A DNA stretch of 64,000 nt from Nitrospirota bacterium (GCA_963710375.1 CAVPZX010000002.1:128001-192000), one strand, 5' to 3'; counted from the stretch's first letter, positions 10,265 to 17,132 are shown. The notes: generated from the sequence alone by a model not told the origin. Translations and numbers: made by a program.

Positions 10265-10512
10265 CACTCAGGACTCGCCGGCCCTTCCTCTCCTTTGATC
10301 ACTTTTTCAGCCAGCGCCTTGTCGGCCTGCGGCACCAGAATCCTAATCTCTCCGATCTTGCCTATGTTGACAGGAAAAGGGCTCACTTTCGAAGACCGCA
10401 ACACAACAGGTATCCCGCCGCTTTCCAGAAGGTCCTTGACCATCTCAGCCTCAACGGGATCGCACGTAACCAGCACATCCACCCACTCTTCACTTCCATC
10501 AGATCCCAGCAT
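10261..10512 (-). CDS. DUF2007-like small protein (start uncertain; nearest in-frame ATG overlaps the msrP 3' end)
   Basis: EEWVDVLVTCDPVEAEMVKDLLESGGIPV...GEIRILVP pattern. Confidence 0.7.
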   Translation of the reverse strand: MLGSDGSEEWVDVLVTCDPVEAEMVKDLLESGGIPVVLRSSKVSPFPVNIGKIGEIRILVPQADKALAEKVIKGEEGPASPEC

Positions 10513-11275
10513 ACCACTCGTATCCTTGGTCTTCCCAGTACCCTCCCTTTCCGCCGGCGATCTTAGAGAAGCTTTCGACGATTTCCAGGCGGATAACATA
10601 CTTCGCGTGTTTGTATCCGAGCTGGCGCTCGACCCGTAAGCGTATCGGCGCACCATTGGCGAGAGGAAGATCCGTTCCGTTCAATTCGTACGCCAGAATG
10701 GTTTGCGGGTGGAATGCGTCCTCCATATCTATGCTCTCGTAGTAGGGAGAACTGCCGTCGTCATTCATCGGGTCGGCACAGTGAAAGACGACATAGCGGG
10801 CATTCGGTTTGAGTTGGACCTTTTCGAGCAGGGGCCCTAAACGCGCTCCCTTCCACTTGCCTATGGCGCTCCATCCCTCGACGCAATCGTGCCTCGTTAT
10901 CTGGGTGCGGCTAGGGAGCGCCCGTATCTCGGCGAGAGAAAACATGCCGGGCTTCTCGACCAAACCGTCAACGGCCAATCGATAATCTGCGAACCCGTTC
11001 TTCGCCATCGCCAAGAATGCCGGGTTGCTGGGCACTGAAGTCCCGTTGCTCCTGAACTTATGAGAAGGGTCCGTCTCAGAGAATTCCCGGACCATAGCCT
11101 TTCTTGGCAGAATCAGTCGCTGAGCGCCCAGGGTCATTTTCTCGCCAAAGCCCAGAATGTTGGGAAACCATGTCGTATCCGAAAGCTTCTGACAGCCGGC
11201 CAAGGCCATGGCTCCGACACCGGCAATCATCCGCGCCAGGAGTCCCCTGCGGTCGATCCCTGTTAAGTTACTCAT
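10499..11275 (-). CDS. Tat-exported molybdopterin oxidoreductase, MsrP/YedY-like (sulfite oxidase fold)
   Basis: DRRGLL Tat motif, TRHDCVEGWS Mo-ligand Cys, NGAPIRLRVERQLGYKHAKY, GYWEDQGYEWYAGI. Confidence 0.85.
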   Translation of the reverse strand: MSNLTGIDRRGLLARMIAGVGAMALAGCQKLSDTTWFPNILGFGEKMTLGAQRLILPRKAMVREFSETDPSHKFRSNGTSVPSNPAFLAMAKNGFADYRLAVDGLVEKPGMFSLAEIRALPSRTQITRHDCVEGWSAIGKWKGARLGPLLEKVQLKPNARYVVFHCADPMNDDGSSPYYESIDMEDAFHPQTILAYELNGTDLPLANGAPIRLRVERQLGYKHAKYVIRLEIVESFSKIAGGKGGYWEDQGYEWYAGI

Positions 11276-12110
11276 TATCTGACTCCGGCGGAACTTTGAA
11301 ATACCCTGTAATCATAGATCGAACGTTATTCCAGAATCCATTGACAACGACTTCGAAGACATGGACGAACACGAATGCCACCAATGCCCAGGCGATGAGG
11401 AAATGGAGCGTTCTCATGGACTGCCTGCCTCCGAACAGGCTGACCAAACCGGGAAAGAGCGCGTCCAGAGCTGGTGACATGCCAAGCCCCATCAGGATCA
11501 TCGCGGGGGCCATCAGGAAGATCACGGAAAGATAGGCCATCTTCTGCAGTACATTGTAGCGAGTGGCTTCCTCCCCTTTCGGTCGCCGTAACAGTAGGTG
11601 ATCGACGACCGACCTGCCGATTGAATGCAACTCTTGACGGGTGGGCAATAGGCTCCGGGCGACATGTCGGATGAGCAAGGAGTAAGTCACAAAGGTGAAG
11701 CCATTTACCACCAGTAGCCAGGCAAAGAAAAAATGCCAACGCCGGGCCATGGCAAGCCATTGGACACTTGGTATTGTTATCCACGTCGGAAATCCCAGGT
11801 CTATCATGTCTCCATCCAGGTCCTTGGAAGCCCCTAGGAATCCGGTGGTATCCATTTTATAACCGAAGAGGCTTGTAGTCCCTATAAGTTTACCTTCATT
11901 ATCTTCCGCGCTGCGTATTTCAAGCAGTGGCGGGTTTTTCCCGTATGATGATTCTCCCCAGTAAAGTATCGAGTGTGCATTGAAGATGTTGAGGCCGCTC
12001 ATCAGAAGTACGACTAAGGCCGTGACATTGATCCAGTGCATAAGCCGCACAGGCAGAGGATGGCGGTACTGCATTTTTTTCCCGGGTAAGGTATCGTTCA
12101 GGTCTGCCAC
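11268..12110 (-). CDS. Di-heme cytochrome b membrane partner (Ni/Fe-hydrogenase cyt b-like; MsrQ-equivalent)
   Basis: VRLMHWIN, RRWHFFFAW, YNVLQK, RTLHF, FVHV His ligands; overlaps the oxidoreductase start. Confidence 0.85.
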   Translation of the reverse strand: MADLNDTLPGKKMQYRHPLPVRLMHWINVTALVVLLMSGLNIFNAHSILYWGESSYGKNPPLLEIRSAEDNEGKLIGTTSLFGYKMDTTGFLGASKDLDGDMIDLGFPTWITIPSVQWLAMARRWHFFFAWLLVVNGFTFVTYSLLIRHVARSLLPTRQELHSIGRSVVDHLLLRRPKGEEATRYNVLQKMAYLSVIFLMAPAMILMGLGMSPALDALFPGLVSLFGGRQSMRTLHFLIAWALVAFVFVHVFEVVVNGFWNNVRSMITGYFKVPPESDNE

Positions 12111-12275
12111 TTCAGTTTACCCCTTGCCAATTACCTTGGAATCTATCACACTCTGGAGACTTATTAGTTTCATATTTCAAAGTTTATCATTCTGATGACA
12201 TTATTACAAATTTTGGCAAATTTGGAAACGATCTTTCCAGTAAAGCCATCTGGGCTTTTTCTATAGTTCATCAGT

Positions 12276-12761
12276 CTATCTTTTAAGCATGTTGGGCCAG
12301 TTCTCATCCGCCTTTTTGATATTTCCGGGAATGTCTTTGCTCCACTTGTCTCTTATTTTCTTACTGAGATTGAGGTAAAGCTTGCCGGCGACAATATTCC
12401 ACTCCTCGGGGTCAATATCAGCTGTGGTTCCGACACTTACTGCAAACGCGCAATAACCACCATATTTTGGCGCATACTTCTCAGGGTTCCTGATGAACAG
12501 ATCCCTGTTTTCGGCGCTTGCGAAATGCCATTTTGCACCCATCCAGATATATTCGAATTCTCCGTTTCCACTTACAGGTTTTCCATCAATAAAATAGGCC
12601 ACAGGATCATAACCCTTAACTGCCACCCCGTCAGAAGTTTTGTTGATAGGTTCTATTGCGGATGCGGGGCCTCCCGACTTTCCTGTGCAACCCGAAAAGA
12701 CGATACCGCCGGCTATGAGTCCGGTCAGCAAGAGCGCCAGTAATAAGGTTGTGTATTTCAT
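12276..12761 (-). CDS. YHS-domain lipoprotein (Cys form)
   Basis: Lipobox-like FSGC, GYDPVAYF, YAPKYGGYCAFAV, GKLYLN. Confidence 0.85.
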   Translation of the reverse strand: MKYTTLLLALLLTGLIAGGIVFSGCTGKSGGPASAIEPINKTSDGVAVKGYDPVAYFIDGKPVSGNGEFEYIWMGAKWHFASAENRDLFIRNPEKYAPKYGGYCAFAVSVGTTADIDPEEWNIVAGKLYLNLSKKIRDKWSKDIPGNIKKADENWPNMLKR

Positions 12762-13063
12762 TTAACTGTTCCTGTGTAGGTACCGGCCTTCTTCAAGACC
12801 GTTTCCATTTCGCCAATCGTAATTACTGCCGGATCATAATAAACAGTGTTTATCTCTTTCAAGTAGCGAAAGCCTTTTTCAACTCTCTTCACTCCCTTCA
12901 GCCCTGCCAGGGCCTCCTTGCCGACATCGAATCATTTAACATTAAAGATCACCTTCGATGTTCCAGCATCTTGTGCGAAAGAAACACCATAACATAAAAA
13001 GACAAACAACATCAAAACAAAAAGAGTCAAAGACTGAGTGCTTCGGTTCTTCATATAATTCAT
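12758..13063 (-). CDS. Putative exported selenoprotein, 101 aa with Sec44 (MsrA-core/HMA-like fold); absent from the ORF track
   Basis: Hand translation MNYMKNRSTQSLTLFVLMLFVFLCYGVSFAQDAGTSKVIFNVK-UGA-FDVGKEALAGLKGVKRVEKGFRYLKEINTVYYDPAVITIGEMETVLKKAGTYTGTVK. Has an AAGGGA RBS, a signal peptide and a hairpin downstream of the UGA. The stop overlaps the next ATG (ATGA). Confidence 0.8.
12900..12914 (-). promoter_or_regulatory. Candidate SECIS hairpin
   Basis: GGCCCU-GGC-AGGGCU; loop begins 23 nt after the in-frame UGA at 12934-12932. Confidence 0.6.
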
Positions 13064-13155
13064 AGTTTTCACATCCCTTTATTGTTCACTTTGTTAACTC
13101 TGTCGTCTCTGCCCTTGAAGTAAGAAATCTTGTCTTTGACAAGACTCCGGTTAGC

Positions 13156-13204
13156 AAAAAAACCTATCAAGAGGGCACGTAATTTAGAGTGCCCTCTTGA
13201 TAGG
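13156..13204 (-). terminator. Intrinsic terminator after the Met-rich gene
   Basis: Perfect 16-bp stem CCTATCAAGAGGGCAC/GTGCCCTCTTGATAGG followed by 7 U on the minus strand. Confidence 0.85.
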
Positions 13205-13261
13205 CTGACTATCTAATATTTATTCGTCTACTTAATGTCTTTCTTTTCCATCACCTAACTT

Positions 13262-13588
13262 TTAGTTGTGAGGAAAAGGAAACAATAAGTCACGCATCTG
13301 CTCGCCCGTGTCCATCATCATCTTGCCGCAGTCCATCATTACCTTGGCCTGATTGCACATCATCTCGCCTTCTCGTTTCATTCCCTTTTCCATCATCATT
13401 TTGCCATTGTCCATCATCATCTGGCCCTTTTCCATCATCATCTGGCCATTGTCCATCATCATCTGGCCCTTTTCCATCATCACTTTTTTGTCCATCGTGT
13501 CGGCGGCTGAAACTAATCCGGTGCCTGCGGAAAGCATAAGACAGAAAAGAAATGCTATTGCTGCTATAGAACATACTATTTTCTTCAT
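13262..13588 (-). CDS. Secreted methionine-rich heptad-repeat protein (MrpX-like oxidant scavenger)
   Basis: GGAGAG RBS, signal peptide MKKIV...VSA, repeats MMMEKGQ/MMMDNGQ; about 24 Met in about 80 mature residues. Confidence 0.8.
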   Translation of the reverse strand: MKKIVCSIAAIAFLFCLMLSAGTGLVSAADTMDKKVMMEKGQMMMDNGQMMMEKGQMMMDNGKMMMEKGMKREGEMMCNQAKVMMDCGKMMMDTGEQMRDLLFPFPHN

Positions 13589-13871
13589 GTTGAACTCTCC
13601 TTTTGATTTTTTACGTTGATCAGATTCCCAAAATAATATTACCCTTATGGTCACGCTCCGCACTCTTATTCTGCTTCTTAATGTCCCCCATGTACACTTC
13701 CTTTAATACATAGTCGTTTATCACCTCGCTTTTCAACTTGTTACTGCATGAACTGTAAGCAGCCTAGCCAAACATCAAAAGCTAGTATGATTCCACTTTA
13801 GCTTGCTGCCTATGATGAATTTCACAACTGCGCCGTTTATTGCACGAAGCCCCACGTAACCAATTAGTTAT

Positions 13872-13926
13872 AGGTTAGCAGAAAAAAAATCACGATATCA
13901 TCACGAAAAAATAACAATTTTATCAC
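13872..13926 (-). promoter_or_regulatory. OmpR/PhoB-type 11-bp-period binding boxes plus extended -10 upstream of the Met-rich gene
   Basis: GTGA-N7-GTTA-N7-GTGA-N7-GTGA, then N9-TGcTAACCT on the minus strand. Confidence 0.75.
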
Positions 13927-13985
13927 GGACGAAAAATTGAAAACCGAAGGCTGACTTCTCAGAATTCAACTATTGGAGGTCATGA

Positions 13986-15464
13986 CTAAACCGTATAAAC
14001 CGGCAGGGTGAACGTGAAGGTCGTACCGGCGTTGACCACACTATCGACCTTAATATCACTTCCGTGGAGTTCCAGGATTCTCCTGGTGATGACCAGCCCA
14101 AGCCCCAAACCACCGGTGCCGCCTGCGTAGCTGCGGCCCATTCGATAACTGCGGTCGAATAAATACGGGAAATCCTCCGGCCGGATACCCGCGCCGGTAT
14201 CGGAAACTTGCACCTTTACTCGTCCGCTTTCGAAACCGGCGCTGACGGTAATCGAGCCGTTTTCCGGAGTGTACCTGGCGGCATTTTCGATGAGGTTTTC
14301 GAACACTCTCTCGATGAGTCCAATATCGGCGAACGCCAGCGGAAGGTGTTCAGGGAAGTTCTGTTGAAGCTTGATCTTTTTCTTCTCAGCAGCAAGCTGG
14401 AACTTCTGCATTATGTCCTGGACAAGTTCCGCCAGAGAAAAAGATTCGAGCCTGACCTGGACATCCGGCGAATCAAGTTTAGCCAGTTCAAAGAGTGCGG
14501 TAACCAACTTTCCTAATTGATTGGAACGCTTAATGGCAATTGTGAGAAAGTCCCGTTGCTCCTGCGGCGTCAACTTTCCTTCCTTCAAGAGCAAGGTCTC
14601 AAGGTATCCATGGAGAGACGTCAGAGGCGTTCGGAGGTCGTGTGTGATATTGGCTACTAATTCGCGCCGAAGCGCATCTGCTTGTCTGAGATTCTTTATC
14701 AGCTGAATAATGCGCTCAGCCATCTGAGAGAAGATCGATCCGAGACGGTCAATTTCATCCCCGGAACTGCCCTTAAAGAAAGGCAAAAAATCGGGATTGT
14801 CTGAAAAATCGCTCTGTCTGAAAGTTTCCATGTCAGCGGTAAGACGTTGGAGCCTACGTGTGATCAAGAAGAAGAGGAGAAGTCCAGTTAGTAAGGCAAA
14901 TAACAGGCTCCATGTCACAGCCCATATGCTTAACCGGATGATGTAACTGCCTTGGAGCATCTCTGCGACCGTTTCAAATTCCTCGCTGCCCAGAATGATG
15001 TAAAGATAACCTTGTATTTGATTTTTAACAAAGATTGGCGCCGCGGAGAACACCTTTTTACTTTTTAGGTTACGCGGGTCGTCACCCAGGATGGGAAACG
15101 CATCCGTCTTGTTCAGGAAACTTTTCAGGGGCACCATTGATACCTCCTGCCTTTTTACTTTTCCAAGAGGTGCGGAGAATGCCAGGATTGTGCCGTTTGG
15201 ATTGAGAAGATAGACCTCGATGTTTGGATTAACGATCATCAGCATATGGAAAATATCCTCAAGGGCTTTTTTATTGACCCGACCGTCCTTCATCAAGCTT
15301 GTCTCCGAAGTCAAGTTCTGAGCCAGAGTACGATTGAGCTTCTGGTCCACCTCCTGAAAATACAGCCGGGTGGTGTAGAGAGTGAACAGCATATAAAGGA
15401 TTCCGATCAGACAGAGCAACCCCAGCAGGACAACAGCCAGCTTGCAATAAAGGGTCTTGAACAT
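13986..15464 (-). CDS. Sensor histidine kinase (2 TM, HAMP, HisKA, HATPase)
   Basis: THDLRTPL H-box, NLIENA, DTGAGI, GLGLGL. Confidence 0.92.
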   Translation of the reverse strand: MFKTLYCKLAVVLLGLLCLIGILYMLFTLYTTRLYFQEVDQKLNRTLAQNLTSETSLMKDGRVNKKALEDIFHMLMIVNPNIEVYLLNPNGTILAFSAPLGKVKRQEVSMVPLKSFLNKTDAFPILGDDPRNLKSKKVFSAAPIFVKNQIQGYLYIILGSEEFETVAEMLQGSYIIRLSIWAVTWSLLFALLTGLLLFFLITRRLQRLTADMETFRQSDFSDNPDFLPFFKGSSGDEIDRLGSIFSQMAERIIQLIKNLRQADALRRELVANITHDLRTPLTSLHGYLETLLLKEGKLTPQEQRDFLTIAIKRSNQLGKLVTALFELAKLDSPDVQVRLESFSLAELVQDIMQKFQLAAEKKKIKLQQNFPEHLPLAFADIGLIERVFENLIENAARYTPENGSITVSAGFESGRVKVQVSDTGAGIRPEDFPYLFDRSYRMGRSYAGGTGGLGLGLVITRRILELHGSDIKVDSVVNAGTTFTFTLPVYTV

Positions 15465-15468
15465 AAGA

Positions 15469-16182
15469 CTATTCCTTTTGGAAATCGGAGAACTTGTAAC
15501 CGATCCCCCAGACAGTCAAAATATAACGGGGCTTGGCAGGATCTTTTTCGATTTTTGCCCTTAATCGGTTGATGTGAGAATTCACGGTATGTTCGTAGCC
15601 TTCGTAGCCGTACACCCATACCTGTTTCAACAGTTCCATGCGTGTATATACCCTCCCGGGATGACTGACAAAGTGGAGCAGGAGGTCGAACTCTTTGGCT
15701 GTCAATAGCACCGGATTTCCCGAGAGCGTAACCTTCCGCTTTTCAGCATCTATAATAAGAGCACCTGTCTGAATCAGTTTCTGCGATTCCTGAGATGCCT
15801 CTGACTTAAGCGCCTCCACACGACGGAACAGCGCCTTGACCCGTGCCAGAAATTCGTGAATACTAAAGGGTTTGGTCAGGTAATCGTCTGCTCCGATCTC
15901 CAGGCCGAGTACACGGTCAACTTCAGAAGATCTGGACGACAGTATCAACATGGGGATATAGACAGATCCTGCCCTCACTCTCCGGCAGATCTCCAGCCCA
16001 TCTACCGCCGGGAGCGTAAGATCCAAAATAATCAGATCATAGGGTTCCGTGAGTGCATGGTCGAGACCGACGTCACCATCATAGGCAAGAGTTACTTCAT
16101 ATCCCATATCTTTCAGATGGAGCTCAACAAGATGGGCTATATCATTATCATCTTCAATTACAAGGATTCTGCGATGCTGCAT
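15469..16182 (-). CDS. OmpR-family response regulator (start probably ATG 16182 or 16203)
   Basis: ILVIEDD, LIILD, GADDYLTKPF, wHTH TVNSHINRLRAKIE...TVWGIGYKF. Confidence 0.92.
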   Translation of the reverse strand: MQHRRILVIEDDNDIAHLVELHLKDMGYEVTLAYDGDVGLDHALTEPYDLIILDLTLPAVDGLEICRRVRAGSVYIPMLILSSRSSEVDRVLGLEIGADDYLTKPFSIHEFLARVKALFRRVEALKSEASQESQKLIQTGALIIDAEKRKVTLSGNPVLLTAKEFDLLLHFVSHPGRVYTRMELLKQVWVYGYEGYEHTVNSHINRLRAKIEKDPAKPRYILTVWGIGYKFSDFQKE

Positions 16183-16264
16183 TTTTGCTCCATGAGCATT
16201 CATGCTGTCGTGATTTATATAAGCATAACATAATGGCATATCCCTAAATTGACATGAAACATCC

Positions 16265-16319
16265 GTGACCAAAAAGTTATCTTTCCGTGATAATTTTGTG
16301 ACTATCGAAATGTTATACT
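16265..16319 (+). promoter_or_regulatory. OmpR/PhoB-type 11-bp-period binding boxes plus extended -10 upstream of msrA
   Basis: GTGA(16265) GTTA(16276) GTGA(16287) GTGA(16298), then N9-TGtTATACT. Confidence 0.75.
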
Positions 16320-16328
16320 ACATAACAA

Positions 16329-17132
16329 TTGGTTAATGTCAAGTCCATTATTGCTTTTATAGTTCTTTGGGGGGTTGCAATAAGCGCTGCGACTCTTGTC
16401 TCTCTTGGAGGGGGTAAAAGTATGTCCATGCAACATAACGATACAGAGGCCTTTGTAGCTCAGCCACCCACAGGTCCATCTCTTACCGGTTCATTCGAAA
16501 CGGCTACCTTCGCCCTTGGCTGATTCTGGGGACCGGACTCCCAGTTTGGGAGTGTACCGGGGGTTGTCAGAACCCGAGTAGGATATGCCGGTGGAACTAC
16601 TAAAAATCCCACTTATCACAACTTGGGAGATCACTCCGAGGCGGTTCAAATTGATTTTAATCCCGCTCTCGTCTCATATAGGGAGCTGTTGGATATCTTT
16701 TGGAAGAGCCACAGCGCGACAAGCGGTTCCGGGTCTCGCCAATATAGGGCAGCAGTGTTTTATCACAACGAAAGACAGAGGAAACTTGCCGAAGAATCCC
16801 GAGATCATCTCGGAACGGAAACAGGACGCAGGATTGTGACAGCGATAGAGACCTATTCCGGGTTCCATTTGGCCGAGGACTACCACCAGAAGCACAGTCT
16901 GCGATTATTCCCCGAACTGATGGAGGAATTGAAAGCGCTTTATCCGGACATGAATAATTTTCTAAATTCTGTTGCCGTCACACGAATCAACGGTTACCTT
17001 GGAGGATACGGCACGTGCGACGCTCTCCAAATGGAAGTAGAGAGTTTCGGGCTTTCACCAAAGGCAAGAGAAAGATTGATTTCCGTTGTATGTGGCCGCA
17101 AAGCTTCAGTTACGTGTCCGATCCGGCAATAA
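16329..17132 (+). CDS. msrA: Selenocysteine-containing peptide methionine sulfoxide reductase A
   Basis: ORFs 16329..16523 and 16623..17132 are one frame joined by UGA 16521-16523 in the catalytic motif: ATFALG-U-FWG...GYAGG...PTY...DHSEAV...QYRAAVF...AEDYHQKH. Confidence 0.92.
16524..16562 (+). promoter_or_regulatory. SECIS element of msrA
   Basis: ACUCCCA-GUU-UGGGAGU 7-bp stem with a G-first loop 20 nt after the UGA; lower stem UUCUGG/CCGGGG. Confidence 0.8.

Follow-up and report, generated by a model that had tools for sequence, protein, structure and literature searches.

The stretch of DNA analysed here (the window) is 64,000 nucleotides from a Nitrospirota bacterium (GCA_963710375.1, CAVPZX010000002.1:128001-192000). 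It carries a gene cassette whose sequence is best explained, with a probability of about two in three (0.68), as one of the OrhK/OrhR type that would defend the cell envelope against methionine-oxidising agents and that includes a small exported protein, likely to contain selenocysteine (Sec), of no catalogued family. A sequence-only reading of the window had proposed a methionine-sulfoxide defence module with its own two-component system. That part of the proposal is supported, for a cassette of mobile type, and every gene it named was recovered in its place by profile scans and from the sequence:

10499–11275, minus strand: molybdenum (Mo) enzyme gene of the sulfite-oxidase family, YedY/C3567-like (the mobile yedZY type), encoding a predicted twin-arginine translocation (Tat) lipoprotein
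11268–12110, minus strand: membrane cytochrome b gene (PF01292), overlapped by the start of the Mo-enzyme gene
12276–12761, minus strand: YHS-domain lipoprotein gene, Cys form (NF041384)
12758–13054, minus strand: small exported UGA protein gene, 98 residues, with an in-frame TGA at 12932–12934 that is likely Sec41
12901–12913, minus strand: hairpin like a Sec insertion sequence (SECIS), with a 5-bp stem and a G-first 3-base loop, 21–33 bases after the TGA
13156–13204, minus strand: terminator-like hairpin and T run downstream of the Met-rich gene (17-pair stem, −31.1 kcal/mol)
13262–13588, minus strand: secreted Met-rich peptide gene with five G-x-MMM-D/E repeats
13890–13926, minus strand: operator 1, GTGA-N7-GTTA-N7-GTGA-N7-GTGA, followed 9 bases on by TG-n-TAACCT
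13986–15464, minus strand: OrhK-like sensor kinase gene with an invariant periplasmic Met76
15469–16203, minus strand: OrhR-like, OmpR-family regulator gene, starting at 16203 or 16182
16265–16301, plus strand: operator 2, with the four-box spacing of operator 1, followed 9 bases on by TG-n-TATACT
16329–17132, plus strand: gene for the methionine sulfoxide reductase MsrA, with a TGA at 16521–16523 that is likely Sec; its start is uncertain, at 16329 (with a signal-like segment) or 16422

Transcription of the minus strand runs from the regulator through the kinase, Met-rich peptide, small UGA gene, YHS gene and cytochrome b to the Mo-enzyme; msrA, on the plus strand, is transcribed away from the regulator gene.

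Kinship to OrhK/OrhR of uropathogenic Escherichia coli (UPEC) CFT073 is clear in both halves of the two-component system. The kinase matches OrhK at 36.8% over 495 residues (E 1.7e-112); its periplasmic domain, unique in the host genome, matches that of OrhK at 40.6%, and the regulator matches OrhR at 52.8% (E 3.5e-84). When UPEC proteins were compared, in that one direction, with the host genome, the best match of OrhK, OrhR and C3567 was in each case the window gene (299 vs 120 bits; 240 vs 172). Periplasmic Met76, a candidate sensing residue, is invariant in 25 of 25 full kinase sequences, including OrhK. It is also invariant in all 80 of a kinase-seeded metagenome sample – the best 80 of 577 confirmed loci, four of them duplicates of loci already in hand – for which the search patterns left out the Met76 position. 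One base of the kinase gene, position 14033, is T in the window and C in all four short-read runs.

The two promoters had been described as alike in architecture, and they are: 40 of 60 bases are identical, and the four-box operator is in both. This pattern occurs exactly twice in the 3.19 Mb host genome, and the 40-base operator box has no other match there at 27/40 or better. A matrix built from relatives only scores operator 2 at 56.4 bits and operator 1 at 54.5, with the next genome site at 15.8 and the best of a shuffled genome at 8.2. That next site, G000:C2:719477(-), is a weak and partial match. Among relatives, 36 of the 80 loci that carry the small UGA gene have the pattern (47 sites); those loci are the 80 retained of 82 related stretches from a genome scan, several of them from the same genome. 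The operator is in 54 of the 80 kinase-sample loci (67 sites, with none in a reversed control). Allowing one mismatch, 14 of 151 genomes of the order had a match vs 6 for the reversed control, so single matches in that order-wide scan are mostly chance.

In the window, the operator precedes the Met-rich gene and msrA only. The peptide has 26 Met in 108 residues (24%), and 24 in the 80 (30%) that follow a signal peptide judged by eye; the sequence-only figure of about 30% thus fits the mature part, in which 30% of residues are charged. There is a single His. No MXKDX pentapeptide was found in it, and it has no NCBIfam or Pfam match. It is likely an oxidant sink. The 340-base leader of its gene was considered as a possible structured RNA; this was rejected, as the consensus fold is weak (−4.6 kcal/mol, with an unfavourable covariation term) and Rfam gave nothing credible. 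A 120-base non-coding stretch of this leader (13713–13830) is homologous in seven other loci, where it stands ahead of different genes.

The MsrA has its TGA at the G-x-F-W-G catalytic site (GUFWG) and a hairpin with a G-first loop after it, at 16537–16553. It scores above the cut-off of TIGR00401 and below that of PF20939, and its best PDB match is 4lwj (E 6e-54), which we take to be a Clostridium oremlandii protein. The Sec site is TGA in five related genes and Cys in 22 homologues among those listed. The Sec-MsrA family is already known; like the 4lwj group, the window MsrA has Sec at the catalytic site and an extra helical domain. Unlike that group, it is likely exported, has three C-terminal Cys, and shares its operator with a Met-rich peptide. 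Most full-length homologues have an N-terminal hydrophobic segment, consistent with an enzyme that is probably exported. The internal start may give a cytoplasmic form alongside the exported one. A strong ribosome-binding-like GGAGGGG stands before the internal ATG that follows the signal-like segment (16329–16430). GG-E-x-M stretches similar to the one in this MsrA are found in several homologues, and one Sec-MsrA homologue, L094:14786-15412, carries another in-frame stop within the C-terminal helical domain. Elsewhere in the host genome, 1.6 kb from tRNA-Sec, the region G000:C4:275001-277629 encodes an exported Cys-MsrA, a disulfide oxidoreductase and an OsmC-like protein whose gene has an in-frame TGA; no operator was found at this second cassette piece.

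The proposal that the window encodes two probable selenoproteins, which gene callers split or truncate, holds for both. The catalytic motif is missing from 87 of the 120 listed MsrA homologues, and genes of the small protein family are truncated by gene callers or have their Sec misread as Trp. Sequencing error at either TGA is ruled out – short-read contigs from other runs carry both unchanged, the first in three of four runs and the second, among the pieces listed, in two of four. Translation of TGA as Trp was rejected as well, as Trp in the database sequences falls where the genome loci have TGA or Cys codons and the host has tRNA-Sec.

The Sec site of the small gene is TGA in 67 of the 80 related loci, Cys (TGT or TGC) in 11 and Arg in two; of 17 small genes scored in the kinase-seeded sample, 13 have a stop there and four have Cys. 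Of 61 distinct TGA forms, 52 keep both the SECIS-like stem and the GG start of its loop; none of 13 Cys forms does. Synonymous sites of the hairpin hardly change (GCC in 61 of 63 Ala codons), and the neighbouring Gly and Val codons vary freely. The case for a SECIS rests on this comparison across homologues because folds of single sequences after the two UGAs were no better than shuffles (z −0.67 and −1.08). These patterns suggest that Sec is inserted.

A search of Pfam with the small protein gave no match. The family has no match in NCBIfam release 20, where the two hits of the window protein were far below cut-off: NF041115 (23.7 bits, cut-off 95) and NF041383 (31.5 bits, cut-off 275). Neither the UxxU motif of the first nor the VPGU motif of the second is found in it. 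Clustered at 50% identity, the family comprises 215 clusters with E 0.001 or better; none of the 150 listed exceeds 170 residues. There is no matching row in the available portion of the 119-family inventory of 2026 (PMC13188914), no match in that of PMC1976440, and no description in the literature searched, though BSepDB or Haft and Tolstoy 2025 (PMC12013261) could already hold the family. A protein atlas queried with a Cys-form homologue returned three unnamed clusters below 0.9 and no family.

In the scheme proposed for the cassette, an oxidant would convert Met76 of the kinase to the sulfoxide, and the regulator would then bind the four GTGA boxes, spaced by 11 bases, leading to induction of the Met-rich peptide and Sec-MsrA. 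The peptide would absorb oxidant and be reduced again by Sec-MsrA. Cytochrome b and the Mo-enzyme, likely a second and quinol-fed repair route, have no operator in the host genome. The small selenoprotein would act in the same compartment as a minimal reductase or an oxidant trap. Peroxide or exposure to oxygen would be no less plausible a stimulus than chlorine.

The Mo-enzyme belongs to PF00174 (E 5e-34) and has an RRGLL twin-arginine motif, an LAGC lipobox and a CVEGW that aligns with CVEAW of E. coli YedY (1xdq). The description of this enzyme as MsrP-like was right as to the Tat signal and the Mo-ligand Cys in CVExW; as to family it fails, with 97.1 bits against the MsrP model NF003767 (cut-off 207). 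It matches UPEC C3567, whose best match in the host genome it is, at 33.9%; a distant blastn search of its gene against E. coli genomes gave no match. The cytochrome b (PF01292, E 8e-22) is not MsrQ-type, has weak similarity to the UPEC C3566 region, and is likely the electron donor to the Mo-enzyme. The regulator has 151 bits with the HprR model (cut-off 353), and a canonical MsrPQ/HprSR identity was rejected on profile scores. The YHS protein belongs to NF041384 (168.7 bits, cut-off 70). Its gene opens with an msrB-type lipoprotein leader: the first 90 nt (12672–12761) are 86.7% identical to the beginning of msrB in L016 and in L020. A deletion has thus likely removed msrB and joined its leader to YHS. 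A separate msrB is on host contig C7.

Much of this core is published. In UPEC, OrhKR activates c3566–c3568 (cytochrome b, Mo-enzyme and Met-rich peptide) on peroxide and protects against it, as reported in the available part of PMC8550376. The claim that the combination is undescribed therefore falls for its core. The UPEC system corresponds to the window in its related kinase and regulator, the periplasmic domain with Met76, the order of cytochrome b then Mo-enzyme, and the secreted Met-rich peptide. The differences are that the UPEC system as described there has hemolysin genes linked to it and no selenoproteins, MsrA or YHS, and that the reported OrhR operator, TCACA-N15-TGTGA, is unlike the four boxes. 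The window's Mo-enzyme and cytochrome b pair, unlike that of OrhKR, has no operator, and there is no single operator-driven operon of three effectors.

Across relatives, the cassette is variable, rare and patchy in distribution. The sequence-only reading had looked for its genes to occur together in other genomes. What recurs is linkage to Msr genes; the exact gene set of the window is in none of the 160 loci of the two samples. MsrA, MsrB or a Mo-enzyme of the sulfite-oxidase family is in 54 of the 80 small-gene loci (MsrA in 42, MsrB in 30), with an msr gene immediately next to the small gene in 22. The kinase is in 27 of these loci, YHS in 11, a Met-rich open reading frame (ORF) in 11, a Mo-enzyme of the same clade in five and a Sec-type MsrA in three; kinase, Met-rich ORF and some Mo-enzyme are together in four. 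In the kinase sample, 18 loci of 80 have the small gene and 30 have an Msr gene or Mo-enzyme (20 of the 38 loci of at least 7 kb). The kinase is in four and the small gene in five of 151 genomes of the order, and of 301 genomes from another phylum, 8 have the kinase sensor.

Several of these comparisons weigh against an OrhKR-type defence cassette. One kinase-bearing genome, G025, has no operator match, and the UPEC promoter also fails to fit this operator (score −2.1). Only 5 of the 80 kinase-sample loci have a Met-rich ORF vs 18 with a spondin-domain gene and 12 with a beta-propeller gene. These are also the commonest first genes after the operator in that sample (spondin-domain at 22 of 67 sites, seven-bladed beta-propeller at 11), and no account of them beside the operator was found in the literature searched. 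In the window, no operator stands before the small selenoprotein gene or cytochrome b.

The last point leads to the strongest alternative, a serious contender at somewhat under even odds, which is compatible with the family-level picture: the two-component system may run only the Met-rich peptide and Sec-MsrA, with the small selenoprotein, YHS, cytochrome b and Mo-enzyme as a separate unit. Apart from the two operator sites, the terminator-like hairpin at 13156–13204 lies between the Met-rich gene and the small selenoprotein gene. It escaped the consensus scan because the loop limit of that scan was 8. Both observations tell against the proposal of a single co-regulated unit, and so does the window's Mo-enzyme clade, which adjoins the kinase in none of the 80 small-gene loci and none of the 80 kinase-sample loci. 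The four-gene sub-block is found without the kinase in L009 and L011, and msrB seems to have been deleted with its leader left on YHS. Still, the terminator may be read through, and at about 18 of the 47 operator sites in relatives, as at 8 of 67 in the kinase sample, the gene that comes first behind the operator is that of the small protein. UPEC, too, pairs the same type of kinase with the same kind of cytochrome b and Mo-enzyme.

A narrower explanation, that the cassette is specifically a defence against reactive chlorine, as had been proposed, is unlikely, and nothing found points to chlorine in particular. Its appeal comes from systems induced by hypochlorous acid (HOCl): the Met sink MrpX of Azospira suillum, with yedZY under SigF/NrsF (PMC4436054), and the Brucella version, BcrS with bcrXQP (PMC8315932). 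In both, as far as the available parts of these papers go, a Met-rich exported peptide and a mobile-type yedZY form a sink and repair pair, like the one proposed for the window. Melnyk 2015 (PMC4436054, in part) notes three cases of mobile yedZY next to histidine kinases and three next to msrA or msrB. The same portions describe control by an extracytoplasmic function (ECF) sigma factor and report no selenoproteins, and BcrX has an MXKDX-type repeat that the window peptide does not. Met-based sensing also suits HOCl, and periplasmic Met residues matter for sensing by E. coli HprS/YedV (10.1101/2021.09.09.459708, in part). The HprSR (YedVW)/MsrPQ system resembles the window in two-component control of periplasmic Met repair and in a conserved sensor Met; it differs in its Mo-enzyme and regulator, for whose models the window proteins fall below cut-off, and in its cytochrome, of another Pfam family. 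But OrhK, the closest characterised sensor, was tested with peroxide and responds to it (PMC8550376, in part). In addition, chlorite dismutase was not found in the 98.8% complete host assembly, and a 349-residue ORF beside a second msrA cluster is cytochrome c peroxidase-like by reading alone. A search for dsrA in the host assembly also found none.

For the small protein, a model with a predicted local distance difference test score (pLDDT) above 90 in the mature part gives a beta-alpha-beta-beta-alpha-beta arrangement, the ferredoxin-like fold of HMA, MerP and CopZ. The top Foldseek match is MerP (root-mean-square deviation, rmsd, 1.9; TM 0.79 on target); E. coli MsrA is the fourth, with an rmsd of 2.0 across 74 columns, and other MsrAs rank lower. 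Profile comparison (hhalign), with target profiles purpose-built from few sequences (42 and 5), aligned it with the N-terminal half of MsrA at 97% probability (E 7.7e-11). That alignment alone covers the first strand together with Sec, and it sets Sec on the catalytic Cys in one ungapped stretch with that strand. Conserved in 126 of 129 members, Glu67 aligns with the Glu of the MsrA H-x-E motif, a residue with a catalytic role. Other features of the protein count against a part in methionine repair. Copper-binding HMA domains come next after MerP in Foldseek, and hhalign to the HMA profile is nearly equal to that for MsrA (95%, E 2.4e-8); with a smaller profile used first, HMA led narrowly, 93% vs 91%. 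The protein has no match to PF01625; the entire C-terminal half of MsrA is missing from it, as are the Trp and the long loop, so it may not bind methionine sulfoxide.

A cassette for soft metals is quite improbable; in it the small selenoprotein would be a MerP/CopZ-like, one-selenol periplasmic metal carrier and the Met-rich peptide a Cu(I)/Ag(I) sponge. Met-rich proteins can bind copper, MerP is the best structural match, some database labels for homologues read CopZ, and 27 of 27 members match the metal-binding selenoprotein NF041115 weakly. However, among 127 members there is no CxxC and no second Cys, only the one Sec or Cys, and the GMxC loop and GMxCxxC metal site are absent. The lone His of the peptide also speaks against a metal sponge. 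Among the 27 annotated of the top 75 neighbour clusters there is no metal ATPase, RND pump or mer gene, and Msr genes dominate.

The small protein has its fold in common with the HMA domains of MerP and CopZ, the UxxU protein NF041115 and the VPGUxxT protein NF041383, as well as Sec at the start of helix 1 and weak profile matches. Unlike them it has a single Sec, no CxxC or UxxU, and is stand-alone and exported. Because it has neither CxxC or a second Cys nor the MsrA Trp and C-terminal half, it is read as a one-selenol redox protein that would belong to neither the MsrA nor the HMA family. On the sequence and the model, its most likely role is that of a minimal MsrA-like reductase or of a trap that reacts fast with oxidants, and not that of a metal chaperone. 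A bolder version, offered tentatively and rather doubtful, is that it works as a minimal MsrA: a domain of 70 residues with the HMA fold, in which a single Sec and an invariant Glu would reduce methionine sulfoxide or peroxide in the periplasm. Such a protein would link metal chaperones with MsrA, and the widespread selenoprotein family founded by it would be central to an OrhKR-type regulon in Nitrospirota and deltaproteobacteria.

Both selenoproteins presuppose a Sec machinery in the host, and this was borne out in part: tRNA-Sec (selC), selB and a TGA-containing selD are all present, and selB is in 44 of 50 genomes hosting the small gene (50 of the 80 loci taken). The missing piece, which counts against the proposed cassette, is selA, not found in the host assembly (G000, rated 98.76% complete) with TIGR00474 or PF03841. 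Four of nine genomes of the same genus also have no selA match, and 35 of 40 relatives have the gene. The simplest reading is that selA probably fell into an assembly gap, because mnmG, folD and the other genes that adjoin it in four genomes of the genus are missing from the host assembly as well, while mnmE is present. In one such genome, G007, the selA-region block abuts sequence matching the end of host contig C2. That the host lost selA, so that both UGA codons are stops and both genes inactive, agrees with the failed profile searches and the four genomes without a match, but is very improbable beside the gene's presence in most relatives, the joint absence of its neighbours, the position of the block in G007, and the intact tRNA-Sec, selB and TGA-containing selD.

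A Met sink and Mo-enzyme under two-component control were known before. The OrhK/OrhR-type cassette of this window adds an uncatalogued selenoprotein family, an operator and a sensor residue, rather than the Met-sink concept. It widens periplasmic methionine repair to include Nitrospirota and deltaproteobacterial lineages, and it contributes a well-supported candidate selenoprotein family, with a small protein in which the relation between MsrA catalysis and the HMA fold can be studied. The OrhK-type sensor gains a precise operator and a candidate sensing residue, and its stimulus and regulon are therefore directly testable.

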